Virus record (IMG/VR): IMGVR_UViG_2585427739_000008
Span: 1 to 9,432 of that record
Source of the DNA: a virus
Taxonomy: Duplodnaviria; Heunggongvirae; Uroviricota; Caudoviricetes
Length of the DNA: 9,432 nt
Direction: 5' to 3' (one strand)
The stretch's first letter is position 1. Every line of letters begins with the position of its first letter. The translations under genes and the position numbers were made by a program. Shown one piece after another: positions 1 through 9,432 of this stretch. Below the pieces are notes generated by a model. It was given only the letters and a program-made list of their open reading frames with translations. It had not been told where the DNA came from and ran no database searches.

Positions 1-285
1 GTATTCGGTGAACGCACTATGGCGACGCTGGGGCGTCTTATGAGCCTGCTGTCACCCTTTGACGTGGTGATATGGATGACGGATGGCTGGCCGCTGTATG
101 AATCCCGCCTGAAGGGAAAGCTGCACGTAATCAGCAAGCGATATACGCAGCGAATTGAGCGGCATAACCTGAATCTGAGGCAGCACCTGGCACGGCTGGG
201 ACGGAAGTCGCTGTCGTTTTCAAAATCGGTGGAGCTGCATGACAAAGTCATCGGGCATTATCTGAACATAAAACACTATCAATAA
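1..285 (+). CDS. insB: IS1 transposase InsB, C-terminal part (5' end lies outside the window)
   Basis: The frame is open from base 1 ([94 protein letters not shown]), which is the known InsB C-terminus. Stop codon at 283-285. Confidence 0.85.
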
Positions 286-300
286 GTTGGAGTCATTACC
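1..300 (+). mobile_element. IS1 insertion sequence, right-hand ~300 bp including the terminal inverted repeat (window starts inside the element)
   Basis: Bases 1-300 match the 3' third of IS1 as I recall it, ending in the characteristic terminus ...cactatcaataagttggagtcattacc at 274-300. Unrelated flanking sequence begins at 301. Confidence 0.9.
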
Positions 301-371
301 CTCTTTCATGCTGAGTGATTTGACGTTATATTTTTAGCCGTAAGTGAAGAGCAAACGCATGGAGCGACAAA

Positions 372-578
372 ATGCATAAAGATCAATACACTGATGCCCC
401 CTCCCAGGAGCAGGTTCGTGTAAAAACTATGCTTAATAGCACCATTTCGATGGGTTACCCGGATGTTGTAATTGCATGTATAGAACATCAAGTGTCTCTG
501 GAAGCATTCAGGGCAATTGAGGCCGCGTTAGTAAAGCACGATAAGAATACGAAGGATTATTCCCTAGTGGTTGACTGA
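372..578 (+). CDS. hypothetical small protein (68 aa), function unknown
   Basis: ORF with a GGAG Shine-Dalgarno 8 nt upstream of the ATG at 372. Lies between the IS1 end and the cos region. I do not recognise a family. Confidence 0.4.
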
Positions 579-941
579 TCACCATAACTGCTAACCATTC
601 TGACCATTTCACAAGTGACAGAGTCAATATCGTATTCTGTCACTGTCAGGCTAATACAGCAATGCAATTCAACTACAGCAATGCCTCGTATTTAGGTGAA
701 TTTACAATATCGTCCAGTTCGGATGCCGGCTGCATTTCTGAAGATAAGGCATTTCGGTTCTCGTATTTTCCCCTCATGCTCGTCAGTCCTGCGCGTAGTA
801 AGAAACAGGACACTCACACTAATTTGTGTGGGCATGCTGTGATGTCCTTCTGAATTATCCCCATGCCATTATGTAAAGCTCTGTTTCAGATGCTCGTCAC
901 GGTTGTCAGGCTGTCGGGTCCTCCCAGTGGGGGTCCCTGCC

Positions 942-961
942 ACGGGGCGGGAGCGTCGCGG
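942..961 (+). promoter_or_regulatory. cosN-like cohesive-end site of a lambdoid phage (core 12-mer about 945-956), with AT-rich cosB-like spacer 962-1140
   Basis: acggggcgggagcgtcgcgg resembles the lambda cos junction ACGGGGCGGCGACCTCGCGG (flanks identical, centre diverged). It sits about 185 bp upstream of the Nu1-like ATG at 1141, the same spacing as lambda cosN to Nu1. The intervening DNA is AT-rich with A/T tracts, as expected for IHF/terminase binding. Confidence 0.45.
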
Positions 962-1140
962 AAAAAGGCTAGTTTTTGCATTTCCATGGCGGCGGCAGCA
1001 TGTTTGGTAATTTATTGATAATTAAAAGTTATTTCTCTTTTCAGCTGTACAATATTTTTTTCTCCCTGTCATTAGACTAGTTTGCAATTAATTGAAATAT
1101 ATAAATAAACCTGATTTTCACCTGCCAGATGGAGTTGCTT

Positions 1141-1305
1141 ATGTCAAATGTGAGCGGGATCGGTGATGCTTATTACTGGAGTGTTTTTAAAATCGCCGAG
1201 GCCTTTGGGCTTCACCGGGACACAGTAAAAAAACGGCTCCTCGCGGCCAACACTCCTGTGGCTGCGACTGTCAGGGGGAACCCCGTTACCGGTTTGTCGC
1301 CTTAA
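1141..1305 (+). pseudogene. terminase small subunit (Nu1-like) N-terminal fragment
   Basis: A 54-codon ORF, MSNVSGIGDAYYWSVFKIAEAFGLHRDTVKKRLLAANTPV..., with a helix-turn-helix-like segment (IAEAFGLHRDTVKK) comparable to the lambda Nu1 N-terminus (LADIFGASIRTIQN). It stops prematurely at 1303-1305 and sits directly downstream of the cos-like site. Confidence 0.5.
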
Positions 1306-1600
1306 CCGATTACGACCGTTTTCCGGAGAATATCGACAGCGAGGGTGATGGTTTCTCCCAGGCCTCAAAACGTACCACCACATTTATGTCCGCCGGGATG
1401 ACTCTGGTGGAGAGCTCGCCGGGACGTGACATCTGCGACAGCAAATGGCGACGTAAGTCGCCTCATGAAGCGCCACCGACGACTGGTATTCTTTCCCTTT
1501 ACAATCGTGGTGACCGCCGCCGCTGGTACTGGCCATGTCCGCACTGCGGTGAATATTTTCAGCCAGCCATGGATGCCATGACCGGCTACCGTAATGAACC
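1290..1600 (+). pseudogene. terminase large subunit (lambda gpA family) internal fragment
   Basis: The frame starting at 1191 is open to 1685 and encodes ...VALTDYDRFPENIDSEGDGF...SPHE...WYWPCPHCGEYF, which aligns with lambda gpA residues around YDELAAFDDDIEQEGS...SPHFMRFHVACPHCGEEQ. There is no N-terminal ~200 codons and no C-terminal half, and the reading frame differs from both neighbours. Confidence 0.6.
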
Positions 1601-4065
1601 GGATCCCTTTAAAGCCAGTGATGCGCTGTATGCCGGTATGGAACGGGCAGACGCTGACGTTCGTGCAGGACCGACCATCAGATAAGGTGTGGACCTATAA
1701 CCGCAGTAATGTGGTGATGCCGGATGATGGCGCGCCGTTCCGCTACAGCTTCAGCGCCCTGAAGGACCGCCATAATGCCGTTGAGGTGAACTGGATTGAC
1801 CCGAACAACGGCTGGGAGACGGCGACAGAGCTTGTTGAAGATACGCAGGCCATTGCCCGTTACGGTCGTAATGTCACGAAGATGGATGCCTTTGGCTGTA
1901 CCAGCCGGGGGCAGGCACACCGCGCCGGGCTGTGGCTGATTAAAACGGAACTGCTGGAGACGCAGACCGTGGATTTCAGCGTGGGTGCTGAAGGGCTTCG
2001 CCATGTACCGGGCGATGTCATTGAAATCTGCGATGATGACTATGCCGGTATCAGCACCGGCGGGCGCGTGCTGGCGGTAAACAGCCAGACCCGGACGCTG
2101 ACGCTCGACCGTGAAATCACGCTGCCATCTTCCGGCACCACGCTGATAAGCCTGGTTGACGGGCAGGGGAGTCCGGTCAGCGTGGAGGTTCAGTCCGTCA
2201 CCGACGGCGTGAAGGTAAAAGTGAGCCGTGTTCCTGACGGTGTTGCTGAATACAGCGTATGGGGGCTGAAGCTGCCGACGCTGCGCCAGCGACTGTTCCG
2301 CTGCGTGAGTATCCGTGAGAACGACGACGGCACGTATGCCATCACCGCCGTGCAGCATGTGCCGGAAAAAGAGGCCATCGTGGATAACGGGGCGCACTTT
2401 GACGGCGACCAGAGCGGCACGGTGAATGGTGTCACGCCGCCAGCGGTGCAGCACCTGACTGCCGAAGTCACCGCAGACAGCGGGGAGTATCAGGTACTGG
2501 CCCGCTGGGACACGCCGAAGGTGGTGAAGGGGGTGAGCTTTATGCTTCGCCTGACCGTGGCAGCGGACGACGGCAGTGAGCGGCTGGTCAGCACGGCCCG
2601 GACGACAGAAACCACATACCGCTTCACGCAACTGGCGCTGGGACGGTACACGCTGACAGTCCGGGCGGTAAATGCGTGGGGACAGCAGGGCGATCCGGCG
2701 TCGGTATCGTTCCGGATTGCCGCACCGGTAGCACCGTCGCGGATTGAGCTGACGCCGGGCTATTTTCAGATAACTGCCACGCCGCATCTTGCGGTTTATG
2801 ATCCGACGGTACAGTTTGAGTTCTGGTTCTCGGAAACGCGGATTACCGATATCAGGCAGGTTGAAACCACAGCCCGCTACCTTAGTGCGGGGCTGTACTG
2901 GATAGCCGCCAGTATCAATATCAAACCGGGCCATGATTATTACTTTTATATCCGCAGTGTGAACACCGTTGGCAAATCGGCATTCGTGGAGGCTGTTGGT
3001 CAGCCGAGTGATGACGCATCCGGTTATCTGGATTTTTTCAAAGGCGAGATAGGGAAAACCCATCTGGCTCAGGAGCTGTGGACGCAGATTGATAACGGTC
3101 AGCTTGCGCCTGACCTGGCTGAAATCAGGACATCCATTACGGATGTCAGCAATGAAATCACACAGACCGTCAATAAGAAACTGGAAGACCAGAGTGCAGC
3201 GATCCAGCAGATACAGAAGGTTCAGGTTGATACAAATAATAACCTGAACAGCATGTGGGCCGTGAAACTGCAGCAGATGCAGGACGGACGCCTTTATATT
3301 GCGGGTATCGGTGCCGGTATTGAGAATACGCCAGCAGGAATGCAGAGTCAGGTGCTGCTGGCGGCAGACAGGATTGCGATGATTAATCCTGCGAATGGCA
3401 ACACAAAGCCGATGTTTGTTGGTCAGGGTGATCAGATATTCATGAACGACGTGTTCCTGAAACGCCTGACGGCTCCCACCATTACCAGCGGCGGTAATCC
3501 TCCGGTATTTTCCCTGACACCGGACGGGCGGCTGACGGCGAAAAATGCGGATATCAGTGGCAGTGTGAATGCGAACGCCGGGACGCTCAACAATGTCACG
3601 ATAAATGAAAACTGTCGGGTTCTGGGAAAACTGTCTGCGAACCAGATTGAAGGCGATCTCGTTAAAACAGTGGGCAAAGCTTTCCCCCGGGACTCCCGTG
3701 CACCGGAGCGGTGGCCATCAGGGACCATTACCGTCAGGGTTTATGACGATCAGCCGTTTGACCGGCAGATTGTTATTCCCGCGGTGGCGTTTCGTGGCGC
3801 TAAACATGAGCGGGAGAATAACGATATTTATTCGTCATGCCGCCTGATAGTGAAGAAAAACGGTGCTGAAATTTATAACCGTACCGCGCTGGATAATACG
3901 CTGGTTTATACAGGTGTTATTGATATGCCTGCTGGTCGCGGTCACATGACGCTGGAGTTTTCGGTATCAGCGTGGCTGGTAAATGACTGGTATCCCACAG
4001 CCAGTATCAGTGATTTGCTGGTTGTGGTGATGAAGAAAGCCACTGCAGGCATCACGATTAGCTGA
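1594..4065 (+). CDS. J: tail tip / host specificity protein J, C-terminal ~820 aa (N-terminally truncated, probably a non-expressed remnant)
   Basis: The translation closely matches lambda gpJ from about ...[35 protein letters not shown]... to the end, with FN3-like segments and a diverged C-terminal receptor-binding end. The frame is open from 1582. The first ATG (1594) has no Shine-Dalgarno, and about 300 N-terminal codons of a full J are absent. Confidence 0.85.
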
Positions 4066-4084
4066 ATTTTATAACCCATATGCG

Positions 4085-4111
4085 GGCGCCATTTCTGGCG
4101 CCTTTTTTATT
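4085..4111 (+). terminator. rho-independent terminator downstream of J
   Basis: Perfect 7-bp stem ggcgcca / tggcgcc with loop tttc, followed by ttttttatt. Confidence 0.6.
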
Positions 4112-4132
4112 GCAGAAAAGCGAGAGGTAATT

Positions 4133-4732
4133 ATGCGTAAAGTTTGTGCAGCCATTTTGTCCGCAGCCATCTGTCTGGCCGTATCCGGTGCGCCTGCATG
4201 GGCGTCTGAGCAGCAGGCCACACTGAGCGCAGGGTATCTTCATGCCCGTACGAACGCTCCCGGCAGCGATAATCTGAACGGGATTAACGTGAAATACCGT
4301 TATGAGTTTACGGACACGCTGGGGCTGATTACGTCATTCAGTTATGCCAACGCTGAAGATGAGCAAAAAACGCATTACAGCGATACCCGCTGGCATGAGG
4401 ATTCCGTGCGTAACCGCTGGTTCAGCGTGATGGTGGGGCCGTCTGTGCGCGTGAATGAATGGTTCAGCGCGTATGCGATGGCGGGTGTGGCTTACAGCCG
4501 TGTGTCGACTTTCTCCGGGGATTATCTCCGCGTAACTGACAACAAGGGGAAAACGCACGATGTGCTGACCGGAAGTGATGACGGTCGCCACAGCAACATG
4601 TCTCTGGCGTGGGGGGCTGGCGTGCAGTTTAACCCGACCGAATCCGTGGCCATTGATGTCGCTTATGAAGGCTCCGGCAGTGGCGACTGGCGCACTGACG
4701 GTTTCATCGTGGGTGTCGGTTATAAGTTCTGA
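4133..4732 (+). CDS. lom: Lom outer membrane protein (Ail/Lom/OmpX beta-barrel family)
   Basis: 199 aa with a signal peptide (MRKVCAAILSAAICLAVSGAPAWA) and a C-terminus ...VAYEGSGSGDWRTDGFIVGVGYKF identical in pattern to lambda Lom. GAGG Shine-Dalgarno 7 nt upstream. Position between J and stf as in lambda. Confidence 0.9.
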   Translation: MRKVCAAILSAAICLAVSGAPAWASEQQATLSAGYLHARTNAPGSDNLNGINVKYRYEFTDTLGLITSFSYANAEDEQKTHYSDTRWHEDSVRNRWFSVMVGPSVRVNEWFSAYAMAGVAYSRVSTFSGDYLRVTDNKGKTHDVLTGSDDGRHSNMSLAWGAGVQFNPTESVAIDVAYEGSGSGDWRTDGFIVGVGYKF

Positions 4733-4758
4733 TTAGCCAGGTAACACAGTGTTATGAC

Positions 4759-4786
4759 AGCCCGCCGGTTCTGGCGGGCTTTTTTG
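4759..4786 (+). terminator. rho-independent terminator downstream of lom
   Basis: 8-bp stem agcccgcc / ggcgggct with loop ggttct, followed by tttttt. Confidence 0.6.
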
Positions 4787-4796
4787 TGGGGTGAAT

Positions 4797-7700
4797 ATGG
4801 CAGTAAAGATTTCAGGTGTACTGAAAGACGGTGCAGGTAAACCGGTACAGAACTGTACAATCCAGCTGAAAGCAAAACGTAACAGCACCACGGTGGTGGC
4901 GAACACGGTGGCCTCAGAAAATCCGGATGAAGCCGGGCGTTACAGCATGGACGTTGAGTACGGTCAGTACAGCGTTATTCTGTTGGTGGAAGGCTTCCCG
5001 CCATCGCATGCCGGGACCATCACCGTGTATGAAGACTCACAACCGGGTACGCTGAATGATTTTCTCGGTGCCATGACGGAGGATGATGTCCGTCCGGAGG
5101 CACTGCGCCGCTTTGAACTGATGGTGGAAGAGGTGGCGCGTAACGCGTCCGCAGTGGCACAGAACACGGCAGCCGCGAAGAAGTCAGCCAGCGATGCCCG
5201 CACATCAGCCCGTGAGGCGGCAACCCATGCGACTGATGCTGCGGACTCCGCACGCGCAGCCAGCACGTCAGCCGGACAGGCCGCGTCGTCGGCTCAGTCA
5301 GCGTCTTCCAGCGCAGGAACGGCATCAACAAAGGCTACTGAAGCATCAAAAAGTGCTGACGCTGCAGAGTCTTCAAAAAGCGCGGCAGCCACCAGTGCCG
5401 GTGCAGCGAAAACGTCAGAAACGAATGCCGCAGCATCACAAAAATCTGCGGCCACTTCTGCATCCACCGCGACCACGAAAGCGTCAGAAGCTGCCACCTC
5501 AGCCCGGGATGCGTCGGCTTCAAAAGTGGCGGCAAAATCATCAGAAACGAGCGCAGCCTCGAGCGCCGGCAGTGCAGCTTCCTCGGCAACGGCGGCAGGA
5601 AATTCCGCGAAGGCCGCAAAAACGTCTGAGACGAATGCGGATAACAGCGCACAGGCGGCAGCAGACTCACAAACTGCATCGGCAAATTCCGCGACAGCAG
5701 CCAAAAAATCAGAAACCAACGCGAAAAATAGTGAGTCAGCAGCAAAGGTCAGCGAAACCAACGCTAAAGCGTCAGAGAACAAGGCGAAAGAATATCTCGA
5801 CAAGGTCGGGGGACTCGTCAGCCCGATGACGCAATACGATTGGCCCGTTGTTACTGGTAATGAGTCTTTTTACATAAAGATCGCGAAACTTTCCGATCCC
5901 GGAAGCAACAATTGCCATGTAACGCTAATGGTTACTAACGGCGGTGACTACGGTTCCCCTTACGGAAACATTGACTTTATCGAGATCTCGGCGCGCGGTC
6001 TGCCTTCTTCGCTTACTGCTGATAATGTATCTCGTTACCTGAGTATACGCCGTTTAGGGCCAACCGGGCTAATCAATAGCATGCAAATGCGTTACGGCCT
6101 GGTTAAAGATGATGGCTTTATTGAGGTTTGGGCCTTCCAGCGTGCATTTATCAACGGCGCAAAGGTTGCGGTACTGGCGCAGACGGCACGCACGGAATTA
6201 TACATTCCAGACGGATTTGTTAAGCAAACCGCCGCGCCTTCTGGATATGTTGAAAGCCCCGTTGTAAGGATTTACGACCAGTTAAACAAGCCGACTAAAG
6301 CAGATTTGGGTCTTTCTAATGCTATGCTTACAGGCGCTTTCGGTCTTGGCGGTAGCGGGATATCAACAAACGGCAAGATGAGCGATGTAGAGATCTTAAA
6401 AGCTCTGCGTGACAAAGGTGGTCATTTCTGGCGCGGTGATAAGCCGACCGGAAGCACGGCGACCATTTATAGCCACGGTTCTGGTATATTCTCGCGGTGC
6501 GGCGATACGTGGTCAGCGATCAATATCGACTACTCAACCGCGAAGATTAAGATCTATGCCGGCAACGATGCCCGGCTTAACAACGGGACTTTTAGCATCA
6601 ATGAGCTATACGGCTCGGCAAACAAGCCGTCGAAATCGGATGTTGGACTTGGCAACGTAACGAACGATGCGCAGGTAAAAAAAACCGGCGATACAATGAC
6701 CTGTGACTTGACAATCAAAAAAGGTACACCGTCAGCCTTCCTGCGGGCAGACAGTGGAGTCACCGCTTTGCGGTTTTATACTGGCGATAACACAGAGCGC
6801 GGCATAATCTATGCTGGTCCTAACACTGATTCGCTTGGCGAAGTTCGCATCAGGGCAAAGACAGCAGGGGGGACATCAGGAGGGGATCTTGTTGTTCGTC
6901 ACGACGGGAGGGTTGAAGTCCGTGATCTCACAGTAGCGTATAAAATTAAAAGCAGAACGATTGAGATTGCAAATACCGACACTGACTCATCGGCAACTAC
7001 GCTAAGCATCTATGGAGTACAGCACACGCCGTTGGTTTTAACGCGTTCTGGTTCTTCTGAAAATGTGTCCATTGGGTTTAAGTTAGACAACGTGAACCCA
7101 AAGTATCTTGGAATTGATACTAATGGGGATCTGGCTTTTGGTGAGAGTCCTGATCAGAAACAAAACAGCAAATTGATCACGCAAGCGAAACTCGACAAGG
7201 GATTAACGATTGGTGGTCAACTGGCTTTCAAAGGTACGACAGCGTTTTCAGCCGCTGCTACGTTCAGTGCCGGGATAGCAGGAGCCATCGAGCCTGAAAA
7301 CATTGGCGGCCAGAAGGTTGATCTTAACAACCTGACCATCAGGTCAGATGCCGGGGCGGTTAAATACTATAGTTGTCCATCCTCTGGAGGTGGTGCAAAT
7401 ATCACCAACAAGCCTGACGGTGTAACCGGTAACTTTTTGCTCCGTGTAGAGTCGACTCGCAAAGTTTCTGCTTCGGATTATGCGAACATGCAAACGCTGA
7501 TCAGCAACGACACAAAACGTATATACGTTCGCTTTGTTGTTAATGGAAACTGGACAGCGTGGAGTCAGGTTGTTGTTTCCGGATGGAATCAGGATATAAC
7601 TGTCAGGTCGTTAACCACATCTAGTCCGGTAAAATCTGGCGGAGGGCGAATTGATGTCCTTGGAAGCACGTCAGACTATAGCAAAATGGATTGCTTTGTA

Positions 7701-8570
7701 CGTGGGTTTGATAGCACCGGTAATTCTCTCGCGTGGGCGTTGGGTTCATCAGTCGGCGTAAGTAAGATGCTGTCGCTAAAAAATTTCTTTAGCGGAGCTG
7801 AGATACTGTTAAATGGTAATGACGGCGCGGTTCAACTCAAAACAGGTGCTGTTAACGGGGCTACAGCGCAGGCGCTAACCATCAACAAAGATGAGGTTAA
7901 CTCAACTGCCGATTTAGTAATTAGAAAACAAACAGGGACTGGCAATCGTTTTGCTTTACTTAATTCAGGTAATTCAGAACTACCAGTTGGTATCAGGGTG
8001 TGGGGTTCCAGTACTCGACAAAACGTTTTTGAGGTTGGCACGTCTGCTGCGTATCTGTTTTATGCGCAAAAAACGTCAGCAGGCCAGTTGTTTGATGTAA
8101 ATGGCGCTATTAATTGCACAACGCTGAATCAGTCATCAGACCGCGACCTTAAAGACGATATTCTCGTTATCAGCGACGCGACGAAAGCAATCCGTAAAAT
8201 GAACGGATACACCTACACGCTCAGGGAAAACGGGATGCCTTATGCTGGCGTTATTGCACAGGAAGTAATGGAGGCGATACCAGAAGCTGTGGGATCGTTT
8301 ACTCATTATGGTGAAGAGTTGCAAGGTCCGACCATTGACGGCAACGAGCTACGCGAAGAAACGCGCTATCTTAATGTTGACTACGCCGCCGTGACGGGCT
8401 TACTTGTTCAGTTCGCCCGTGAAACAGATGATCGCGTTACCGCGCTGGAAGAGGAAAACACAACGCTACGTCAAAATCTGGCAACAGCAGACACCCGGAT
8501 CAGCACTCTGGAAAATCAGGTAAGCGAACTGGTTGCACTTGTCCGGCAGTTAACAGGAAGCGAACATTGA
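4797..8570 (+). CDS. stf: side tail fiber protein, mosaic: lambda Stf-like N-terminus, Ala/Ser-rich shaft, unrelated distal module, C-terminal intramolecular chaperone domain
   Basis: From the ATG at 4797 the protein begins MAVKISGVLKDGAGKPVQNCTIQLKAKRNSTTV..., near-identical to the lambda Stf N-terminus. The ORF track starts at an in-frame GTG at 4791. The gene is 1257 codons from the ATG, with a GGGGTGA Shine-Dalgarno just upstream and a stop at 8568-8570. Confidence 0.85.
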   Translation: MAVKISGVLKDGAGKPVQNCTIQLKAKRNSTTVVANTVASENPDEAGRYSMDVEYGQYSVILLVEGFPPSHAGTITVYEDSQPGTLNDFLGAMTEDDVRPEALRRFELMVEEVARNASAVAQNTAAAKKSASDARTSAREAATHATDAADSARAASTSAGQAASSAQSASSSAGTASTKATEASKSADAAESSKSAAATSAGAAKTSETNAAASQKSAATSASTATTKASEAATSARDASASKVAAKSSETSAASSAGSAASSATAAGNSAKAAKTSETNADNSAQAAADSQTASANSATAAKKSETNAKNSESAAKVSETNAKASENKAKEYLDKVGGLVSPMTQYDWPVVTGNESFYIKIAKLSDPGSNNCHVTLMVTNGGDYGSPYGNIDFIEISARGLPSSLTADNVSRYLSIRRLGPTGLINSMQMRYGLVKDDGFIEVWAFQRAFINGAKVAVLAQTARTELYIPDGFVKQTAAPSGYVESPVVRIYDQLNKPTKADLGLSNAMLTGAFGLGGSGISTNGKMSDVEILKALRDKGGHFWRGDKPTGSTATIYSHGSGIFSRCGDTWSAINIDYSTAKIKIYAGNDARLNNGTFSINELYGSANKPSKSDVGLGNVTNDAQVKKTGDTMTCDLTIKKGTPSAFLRADSGVTALRFYTGDNTERGIIYAGPNTDSLGEVRIRAKTAGGTSGGDLVVRHDGRVEVRDLTVAYKIKSRTIEIANTDTDSSATTLSIYGVQHTPLVLTRSGSSENVSIGFKLDNVNPKYLGIDTNGDLAFGESPDQKQNSKLITQAKLDKGLTIGGQLAFKGTTAFSAAATFSAGIAGAIEPENIGGQKVDLNNLTIRSDAGAVKYYSCPSSGGGANITNKPDGVTGNFLLRVESTRKVSASDYANMQTLISNDTKRIYVRFVVNGNWTAWSQVVVSGWNQDITVRSLTTSSPVKSGGGRIDVLGSTSDYSKMDCFVRGFDSTGNSLAWALGSSVGVSKMLSLKNFFSGAEILLNGNDGAVQLKTGAVNGATAQALTINKDEVNSTADLVIRKQTGTGNRFALLNSGNSELPVGIRVWGSSTRQNVFEVGTSAAYLFYAQKTSAGQLFDVNGAINCTTLNQSSDRDLKDDILVISDATKAIRKMNGYTYTLRENGMPYAGVIAQEVMEAIPEAVGSFTHYGEELQGPTIDGNELREETRYLNVDYAAVTGLLVQFARETDDRVTALEEENTTLRQNLATADTRISTLENQVSELVALVRQLTGSEH
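5110..5790 (+). repeat. degenerate Ala/Ser/Thr-rich coding repeats within stf (recurring AAKTSETNA-like units)
   Basis: GC-rich low-complexity stretch. The motif gcnaaaacgtc(a/t)ga(a/g)acgaatgc recurs at about 5404, 5614, 5700 and 5750. It corresponds to the Ala-rich shaft region of lambda Stf. Confidence 0.6.
8136..8567 (+). other. C-terminal intramolecular chaperone domain (peptidase S74-like, self-cleaving) of the tail fiber
   Basis: The last ~144 codons begin with S-D-R-D-L-K (Ser codon 8136-8138, Lys codon 8151-8153), matching the Ser...Lys dyad spacing (SDRxLK) of autoproteolytic chaperone domains in phage endosialidases, T5 L-shaped fibers and MYRF. This is followed by ...KMNGYTYTL... 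and a coiled-coil-like tail. Confidence 0.6.
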
Positions 8571-8745
8571 TATCCTTCAAGCTCTGAAGGAGGCTGTTCC
8601 CGGTACGTTCAGACTGTTGTTGAGCTGGAAATCGCAACGGAGGAAGAAACCTTGTTGCTGGAAGCCTGGAAAAAGTATCGGGTGTTGCTGAACCGTGTTG
8701 ATACGTCAACTGCACAGGATATTGAATGGCCAGCACTGCCGTAGG
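8571..8745 (+). pseudogene. tfa: tail fiber assembly protein (Tfa) C-terminal remnant, no start codon
   Basis: Immediately after the stf stop, in the same frame, the sequence translates as ...[42 protein letters not shown]. This matches the conserved C-terminus of Tfa/U-type chaperones. There is no in-frame start, so only about 58 codons remain. Confidence 0.55.
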
Positions 8746-8841
8746 GTAAAACATATAAATTCTATAATTAGATGTATCTTTCCATTTACGGCAAGGAAGG
8801 GGGCTTGGAAGACGTAAAGCATCTCACACCGAGATTATTTT

Positions 8842-9432
8842 TTATATGTCAGGTGTCTGAAGTTTTGCTTTGGCTCTTAAAATGGTTTGCCGCGAGGTTT
8901 TGAATTCCCGGGCAATGGCACTTATACTTACACCTGACTTAATTCGTTCGAATACCACCTGTTTCTGTTCTTCATTTAACACAGGTGGTCGACCAAAACG
9001 TTTCCCTGCGCCGCGGGCTCTTACTATCCCGGAATGAGTGCGTTCAAGTAAAAGGTCTCGTTCAAATTCAGCGACTGCTGAAATTACGTGCATCATCATT
9101 TTTCCTGTTGGACTGGTCAGGTCAATGCCCCCCAATGCTAAGCAATGCACTCTGATACCTGTTTCGGTCAGTTGTTCCACTGTTTTCCTGATATCCATTG
9201 CATTACAACCAAGGCGATCCAGTTTTGTCACAATCAATTGATCACCACATTTCAGGCGAGCAAGCAACCGGTTAAAACCAGGACGCTCACTGGTTGCTGC
9301 TGAGCCGCTAATGTGTTCTTCGATTATTTGCTGAGGTTTGATTTTAAAACCTGCACTTTCGATTTCCCGGCGTTGATTTTCGGTGGTCTGATCCAGCGTT
9401 GATATCCGACAGTAAGCAAAAATTCGAGACAT
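8842..9432 (-). CDS. pin: serine recombinase, Pin/Gin/Hin-family DNA invertase (196 aa; resembles PinR/PinQ of E. coli cryptic prophages)
   Basis: The minus-strand ORF begins [20 protein letters not shown]... (catalytic Ser in the YxRxST motif) and has a C-terminal helix-turn-helix ([18 protein letters not shown]). Its start codon is the last three bases of the window. It is convergent with stf/tfa, as in Rac-type prophages. Confidence 0.9.

Follow-up and report, generated by a model that had tools for sequence, protein, structure and literature searches.

In phage lambda (Ur-lambda), the side tail fiber gene stf follows J and lom and encodes a protein with an N-terminal attachment domain (PF08400), a shaft rich in alanine and serine and a distal part (orf-314), which works together with a separate, trans-acting assembly protein, Tfa. 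The L-shaped tail fiber pb1 of phage T5 (PDB 4UW7 and 4UW8) is likewise a long lateral fiber of a siphovirus; it has no separate assembly protein and ends in a self-cleaving chaperone of 133 amino acids. In this protein the Thr1263-Ser1264 bond is cut by Ser1264 activated by Lys1269, the S1264A substitution blocks the reaction, and release of the chaperone unmasks the receptor site (PMC4690869). Here we describe a 9,432-nucleotide (nt) stretch of DNA (hereafter, the window), which comprises positions 1 to 9,432 of the IMG/VR virus record IMGVR_UViG_2585427739_000008 (Caudoviricetes) and in which the open reading frame at 4797-8570 is the stf gene of a defective Escherichia coli prophage of the Qin type. 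Its product is very probably a mosaic lambdoid side fiber, with a lambda-type N-terminus and shaft joined to a distal module that bears a Peptidase_S74 domain and replaces Tfa.

This locus shares with lambda the gene position (J, lom, stf) in a lambdoid late operon, the PF08400 attachment domain and the type of shaft, but its distal two thirds are unrelated to orf-314, tfa is cut down to its last 45 codons and an S74 domain stands at the C-terminus instead. It differs from T5 pb1 in its N-terminus, which is of the lambda-tail attachment type, and T5-like phages of E. coli and Salmonella match only residues ~510-611 of the stf product, at ~40%. The chaperones of the K1F endosialidase endoNF (PDB 3GW6) and of the GA-1 neck appendage (3GUD) belong to the same MEROPS/Pfam family, S74, and share with it the S-D-x-x-x-K motif and the predicted fold, although the identity is only 13-24% and the cargo here is not a tailspike enzyme but a long fiber. 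The K1F and K5 fiber ends that have been grafted onto lambda Stf carry their own S74 chaperone. The resulting lambda-K1F and lambda-K5 side tail fiber (STF) chimeras, which like our protein combine the lambda Stf N-terminus with a foreign receptor-binding end, enabled efficient DNA delivery by lambda particles (PMC11338833); they are laboratory fusions at Stf residue 528, whereas the natural joint described here lies at residue ~281-284. A set of 126 lambda Stf chimeras has also been screened (bioRxiv 2025.02.28.640725), and there are published descriptions of related phages whose only difference is whether they use a built-in chaperone or a separate Tfa (PMC11990801). Our literature search retrieved no paper on natural lambdoid Stf proteins with an S74 domain. 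The closest relatives are the side fibers of phages mEp460 and Ayreon and a number of RefSeq E. coli proteins, which have the same architecture and the same tfa remnant and for which the search found no experimental characterisation. Ayreon is 86% identical at the DNA level over the full length of stf, and mEp460 shares residues 1-325 and 940-1257; both differ from it by allelic middle and tip segments.

A side fiber with a C-terminal Peptidase_S74 chaperone

The stf reading frame runs uninterrupted from the ATG at 4797 to 8570 and encodes 1257 amino acids (1257 codons without internal stop), the length given in a first-pass annotation of the window; the program-made list of open reading frames starts it at an upstream GTG, at 4791. 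The following features were delimited in the gene and immediately downstream of it:

4797-5198, plus strand: lambda-type Stf N-terminal attachment domain, residues 1-134 (PF08400, phage_tail_N, E 1.1e-71)
5199-5801, plus strand: repetitive shaft rich in Ala, Ser and Thr (72-75% of residues), residues ~135-335, which holds the lambda joint at ~5638-5650
5802-7568, plus strand: distal shaft and globular region, residues ~336-924, with no relation to lambda Stf and with matches to PHROG tail fiber families 24369 and 10316
7569-8135, plus strand: distal tip, residues ~925-1113, presumed receptor-binding end and the most variable part among homologues
8136-8570, plus strand: C-terminal intramolecular chaperone, Peptidase_S74 (PF13884), residues 1114-1257, plus stop codon
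8607-8747, plus strand: tfa remnant, the final 45 codons and the stop, lacking a start codon (tblastn, blastn and the Prokaryotic Genome Annotation Pipeline, PGAP)
8685-8704, no strand: homologous crossover interval within the tfa remnant, with the cassette lineage on its left and resident Qin DNA on its right

The last 144 amino acids are a Peptidase_S74 intramolecular chaperone with a conserved Ser/Lys pair. A hidden Markov model search with Pfam matched PF13884 to residues 1114-1165 (E 9.1e-12) with 45.5 bits, against a gathering cut-off of 22 bits. The SDRDLK motif opens with the TCA codon at 8136-8138 (Ser1114), and the tail that starts there has 144 amino acids and a calculated mass of 16.0 kDa; both the position of this serine and the ~144-residue, ~16-kDa tail had been proposed in the first-pass annotation, together with the chaperone assignment itself, and all of them hold. 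The motif corresponds to the conserved S-D-x-x-x-K signature at the start of the domain (S1114-D-R-D-L-K1119), with the serine and the lysine at i and i+5. A search of cluster representatives retrieved 2763 clusters with the chaperone domain (E<=1e-3), and nearly all among the best 150 of these 2763 matches carry it at the extreme C-terminus. Thirty diverse homologues taken from this search, which also served as input for a sequence profile and for AlphaFold, showed Ser1114 to be near-invariant and Asp1115 and Lys1119 invariant.

Comparison with solved structures led to the same family. The profile of the 30 homologues matched S16 gp37 (6F45, 4e-21), the MyRF ICA domain (7DC3, 4e-14), a tail fiber (8JOV, 1e-3) and the GA-1 CIMCD (3GUD, 9e-3) in the PDB. 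The last of these, the crystallised form of the released GA-1 neck-appendage chaperone, starts with SDERHK, which aligns with SDRDLK at Ser1114. Searches of the PDB with the single sequence gave only S16 gp37 (6F45) plus coiled-coil noise, the endosialidase-family structures being reached only via profile or fold. The AlphaFold model of residues 1087-1257, a monomer with the trimer contacts outside the model, had a predicted local distance difference test score (pLDDT) of 90.7 and a predicted template modelling score (pTM) of 0.74. When compared with the PDB using Foldseek, its ten best matches were all 7DC3, 3GW6 or 3GUD (probability 1.00, TM-scores 0.29-0.56), that is, only the MyRF ICA domain, the endosialidase chaperone and the GA-1 chaperone, and the next match had E>0.5. 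The structure prediction thus agreed with the initial assignment, at a sequence identity to solved chaperone domains of 13-24%.

The spacing of the conserved pair is that of T5 pb1, in which Ser1264 and Lys1269 are also five residues apart, and the two domains are of similar size (133 amino acids in pb1, 144 here). By this analogy, the scissile bond would be Ser1113/Ser1114, with Ser1114/Lys1119 as catalytic dyad and a mature chain of 115.6 kDa. If the protein works like T5 pb1 and the endosialidase, the C-terminal domain would bring three chains into register. After folding of the upstream beta-structure, Lys1119 would activate Ser1114 to cut the Ser1113-Ser1114 bond. The 16-kDa chaperone trimer would then leave and expose the receptor-binding tip of the 115.6-kDa mature chain, with no need for Tfa. 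We infer both this self-cleavage and a change of receptor with respect to lambda.

The lambda joint within the shaft

Lambda Stf (orf-401) aligned with residues 1-284 of the stf product at 85% identity, and no BLASTP alignment of lambda orf-314 with it was better than E 5. In the stf-tfa part of the window, blastn detected DNA homology to lambda at 4605-5638 and then only at 8608-8734 (the 3' end of tfa). The tail fiber of the Klebsiella siphophage vB_Kpl_K50_evo17 (hereafter, K50) showed 52% identity over residues ~158-948, an alignment that takes in the last 'SETNAK' repeats of the shaft and the 'SENKAKEY' motif. Since the lambda DNA homology ends at 5638 and the K50 alignment already covers the last shaft repeats, the joint between lambda and foreign sequence lies within the Ala/Ser shaft, at ~5638-5650 (residue ~281-284). 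The first-pass annotation was therefore right in considering the start of the protein lambda Stf-like, although this holds for residues 1-284 and not for the first ~330 codons, and its boundary at 5790-5800 has to be moved, as the lambda DNA homology stops ~150 nt before it. Position ~5800 is the end of the shaft, not the lambda joint. Its further claim that the distal region is unrelated to lambda Stf was confirmed by the loss of similarity in the shaft and the failure of orf-314 to align.

The same annotation had noticed a drop in GC (guanine plus cytosine) content near 5800. The drop is real: in 300-nt windows, GC was 0.56-0.63 across 4951-5850 and fell to 0.44-0.52 after ~5800. However, when we split it by codon position, the second position accounted for most of it (0.75-0.80 in the Ala/Ser/Thr-rich shaft versus 0.42-0.47 beyond), whereas the third was alike on both sides (0.478 in the shaft versus 0.468 in the distal part). 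The drop consequently reflects amino acid composition, namely the end of the low-complexity shaft, and we rejected it as a signature of foreign DNA. Third-position GC in the N-terminal domain (0.60) was similar to that of J (0.64) and lom (0.625), and the distal part was lower.

The shaft contains a 29-nt unit repeated six times at spacings that are multiples of 21 nt, mostly 84 nt. Long open reading frames overlap it in other frames and on the opposite strand within 4964-5829, for instance at 5294-5803 (minus strand) and 5194-5829 (plus strand). As in the case of the annotated orf206b of lambda, these frames are a side effect of the repetitive, GC-rich coding sequence.

A tfa remnant as the scar of a trans-to-cis replacement

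The stf stop codon is followed by 37 unique bases and then, from 8608, by sequence that resembles the 3' ends of the tfa gene of lambda and tfaQ of K-12. Blastn gave 88% identity to the lambda tfa 3' end over 8608-8734, and tblastn with lambda Tfa and K-12 TfaQ recovered only residues 147-191, both in the window and in the Ayreon locus. PGAP annotates this remnant as an incomplete tail fiber assembly protein. Phages Ayreon and mEp460, as well as L007, an E. coli prophage (GCA_035011265.1), have the same remnant after stf, with identical spacing from the stf stop in all three. Arrival of the distal module deleted the lambda-type distal part of Stf and the first three quarters of tfa, and the remnant is the scar of this replacement. 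The complete genome of mEp460, which has a fiber of like type, yielded no Tfa homologue by tblastn besides the remnant residues 147-191, and the fibers of K50 and of the T5-like Klebsiella phage GZ8 have S74 at their C-terminus and no tfa annotated directly downstream. The same remnant in Ayreon, mEp460 and L007, taken together with these observations in mEp460 and the Klebsiella phages, points to one old replacement event. The idea that a trans-acting Tfa had been exchanged for a cis-acting chaperone, put forward in the first-pass annotation, is thus supported both by the reduction of tfa to its last 45 codons and by mEp460, which has no other Tfa homologue.

Two side observations concern the remnant. 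The stf stop (TGA, 8568-8570) is in frame with it and the next stop is at 8745-8747, such that readthrough would add 58 residues ending in the conserved Tfa C-terminus; this arrangement is probably a coincidence. In L007, a second copy of the tfa 3' end (10844-10960, 86% identical to 8615-8731 of the window) lies ~900 nt downstream of the first remnant.

Homologous exchange with the resident Qin prophage

Mismatch patterns along the remnant allowed us to map the right-hand exchange point. The window differs from K-12 Qin at 11 positions in 8608-8684, compared with none in 8685-8956 and 3 in 8685-9432 (99.6% identity over 748 nt). From L007 and Ayreon it differs at 0-3 positions in 8560-8684 but at 16 in 8705-8747. 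The switch falls in 20 identical bases at 8685-8704, which indicates that a homologous exchange joined the incoming cassette to the tfaQ/pinQ DNA of Qin. A homologous crossover at 8685-8704 thus linked the cassette to resident Qin DNA in this strain, in agreement with the recombination of lambda with the Qin stf/tfa region shown experimentally (PMC3945230).

The position of the crossover inside the remnant makes it plausible that the latter acts as a homology arm. We tentatively propose, as a possibility that we hold to be somewhat less probable than its negation, that the ~140-nt tfa remnant serves as right arm and the conserved 5' end of stf as left arm for the exchange of whole distal cassettes among lambdoid phages and prophages. 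If this were true, such arms would permit switching between Tfa-dependent and self-chaperoned fibers, the window being one such exchange, and their use would be reflected in the retention of the remnant in every chaperone-type locus examined.

The distal module and its relatives

Virulent Klebsiella phages of the T1-like, T5-like and T4-like groups also share the distal module. It was matched by 525 phage records, the majority of them from Klebsiella phages. Apart from the K50 fiber, that of GZ8 showed 53% identity over residues ~340-938, and T5-like and T4-like Klebsiella phages have fibers 38-54% identical in the distal region (residues ~336-924). The motif Y-x-x-x-N-K-P-(T/S)-K-(A/S)-D-(L/V)-G-L occurs twice in it (6273-6314 and 6609-6650), 112 codons apart and bracketing a Gly-rich segment of the distal shaft; both Klebsiella phage fibers and long tail fiber proteins of the T4 type conserve the second NKP(T/S)K(A/S)D(L/V)GL copy (6609-6650).

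Close homologues differ in the tip, whereas the chaperone domain that follows it is nearly invariant. NCBI names these homologues 'pyocin knob domain-containing S74 family peptidase', but the 'pyocin knob' label is unconfirmed here: NCBIfam gave nothing meaningful on the full protein, and a PDB sequence search with residues 814-948 returned only antibody noise. An AlphaFold monomer of residues 925-1257, built on a shallow alignment, reached a pLDDT of 56 (<50 in the S74 core), which is too poor for a fold search and too weak for comparison with the bullet-shaped tip of T5 pb1. By analogy with its relatives, the fiber would recognise a receptor different from the OmpC-type target of lambda; a surface glycan is our speculative guess, from T5 pb1 and the Klebsiella phage relatives. 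We also considered a natural stand-alone distal protein of 914-917 amino acids, listed in databases as 'complete' without the N-terminal domain, and rejected it, as the full-length frame is intact in L007 (5960-9751). These entries are internal-start gene calls, probably caused by the low-complexity shaft.

Spread, mosaicism and selection

The full stf gene is present in 301 of the 5426 complete E. coli genomes that we surveyed, and the junction between chaperone and tfa remnant in 803 of them (~15%), as well as in phages mEp460 and Ayreon. Relatives are already annotated in databases under the NCBI name given above or as 'chaperone of endosialidase'. A lambda-type fiber with a built-in chaperone is therefore a common and already catalogued arrangement, and not an unusual one. 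Identity to the two phage fibers varies along the stf product:

Ayreon, residues 1-520: ~92-100% identity per 40-residue window
Ayreon, residues 521-1080: 50-85% identity
Ayreon, residues 1081-1257: 95-100% identity
mEp460, residues 1-325: ~95% identity
mEp460, residues 326-930: unrelated
mEp460, residues 940-1257: 65-100% identity

These patterns imply that at least three segments of the fiber have been exchanged independently. The ratio of nonsynonymous to synonymous substitution rates (dN/dS) was 0.07-0.38 in all stf segments, with the lowest values (0.07-0.15) in the chaperone and 0.28 against Ayreon for residues 841-1113. Such low values fit a functional fiber in the phage population. In several genomes, insertion sequences (IS1 or IS2) interrupt close relatives of the gene.

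The locus illustrates clearly, and in a natural setting, how phage fibers are assembled from exchangeable modules and how a module may come with a folding helper of its own. With the tfa remnant and the crossover mapped here, the way from a Tfa-dependent to a self-chaperoned fiber can be followed step by step, as can the later movement of the cassette between elements. The natural joints in the shaft (residues ~281-335) indicate where lambda Stf tolerates grafting, which can help in the design of engineered delivery particles. Since the S74 family, fiber mosaicism and donation by defective prophages are all known already, the stf product is an uncharacterised member of a well-known kind, an S74-chaperone tail fiber in a mosaic lambdoid stf locus, and opens no new question.

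The host prophage and the present role of stf

Over all its 9432 bases, the window shows 99.9% identity to the Qin region of the NT1F25 strain of E. coli. In NT1F25, the element is flanked by cspI, ynfQ, ynfN and gnsB on one side and by pinQ, ydfK, ynfT and ydfJ on the other. The flanking genes cspI/gnsB and pinQ/ydfK/ydfJ, compared with K-12, identify it as the cryptic lambdoid prophage Qin. In the window, an IS1 end is followed by terminase fragments fused to J, then by lom, stf, the tfa remnant and, on the opposite strand, pinQ:

1-330: end of an IS1 element (C-terminal 88 amino acids of InsB at 19-285), bordering the prophage remnant
1141-1625 and 1594-4065: fragments of the terminase large subunit and J, the terminase being fused directly to J at ~codon 345
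4133-4732: lom, between J and stf
8842-9432, minus strand: pinQ, an intact gene for a Pin-family serine invertase (resolvase/invertase family)

The head genes and most tail genes (those upstream of J) are deleted. The prophage is hence defective and cannot equip a virion of its own with the fiber, and the present role of stf is at most that of a donor. Judging from its surroundings, the gene is most likely retained as a source of DNA with which incoming lambdoid phages can recombine.

Several points weigh against our reading of the stf product as a functional self-chaperoned mosaic fiber. Trimerisation, self-cleavage and receptor binding are attributed to it by analogy, and counterparts of the upstream 'sensor' residues of T5 pb1 (Arg1250 and Asp1239) were not identified. 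The model of the tip (residues 925-1113) is poor, with a pLDDT of 56, such that its receptor-binding fold is putative and the 'pyocin knob' label is a database name. The viability of mEp460 and Ayreon is no proof that their side fibers assemble, since lambda PaPa is viable without side fibers. Finally, in a prophage devoid of most tail genes, and with relatives that carry insertion sequences, stf may be decaying in this host.

This last point leads to the strongest alternative, namely that stf is a functionless relic, intact only through recent acquisition and with features of historical interest only. The fusion of terminase fragments to J at ~codon 345, with an IS1 end close by, precludes the building of a tail; close relatives are interrupted by IS1 or IS2 in several genomes, and K-12 Qin retains stfQ only in truncated form. 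Nevertheless, the 1257 codons contain no stop, dN/dS is well below 1 in every segment (although this reflects phage history rather than this host), and the same gene occurs in prophage L007, where J is intact, and in phages deposited as complete genomes. Defective prophages are, in addition, documented donors of stf/tfa DNA to lambda (PMC3945230). We consider this alternative unlikely; it concerns the present use of the gene and not its coding content, and thus overlaps with the explanation that we favour.

Less probable still is that the C-terminal domain is a degenerate, non-cleaving S74 relative and that the fiber needs Tfa supplied in trans by another prophage. E. coli genomes do usually carry several tfa genes (the tfa 3' end was matched in 4640 of the 5426 genomes), and cleavage of the stf product is a prediction by homology. 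However, the putative catalytic positions are conserved across diverse homologues (Ser1114 near-invariant, Asp1115 and Lys1119 invariant), the chaperone domain is the most constrained part of the protein by dN/dS and its predicted fold matches active chaperone domains. Furthermore, mEp460 encodes no Tfa, and a lambda-type Tfa works with the lambda-type distal domain that is absent here.

A swap by Pin-type site-specific inversion or recombination, without any part played by homologous or illegitimate recombination, can practically be dismissed: an invertase gene (pinQ) does lie directly downstream and exchange of fiber ends by invertases is mentioned in published work (PMC3945230), but a scan of the window for a AAACCNNGGTTT-type crossover core, with up to one mismatch tolerated, gave no match, no suitable inverted repeats flank the distal module, the exchange point on the right falls within 20 nt where the tfa homology is perfect, and Ayreon and mEp460 carry the same cassette with no pin gene annotated nearby. 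The pinQ gene itself looks like an orphan, with neither crossover core nor invertible segment in the window.

Other features of the region

The C-terminal, receptor-binding part of J (3687-4026), in which Pfam recognises Ig_GpJ_C, has no DNA match in lambda, Ayreon or mEp460, which indicates that the central fiber also has a different receptor-binding allele. An Rfam scan of the whole window gave no matches. Strong terminator-like hairpins lie on either side of lom (4084-4103 and 4759-4780), and Ayreon and mEp460 have annotated terminators at the equivalent positions.

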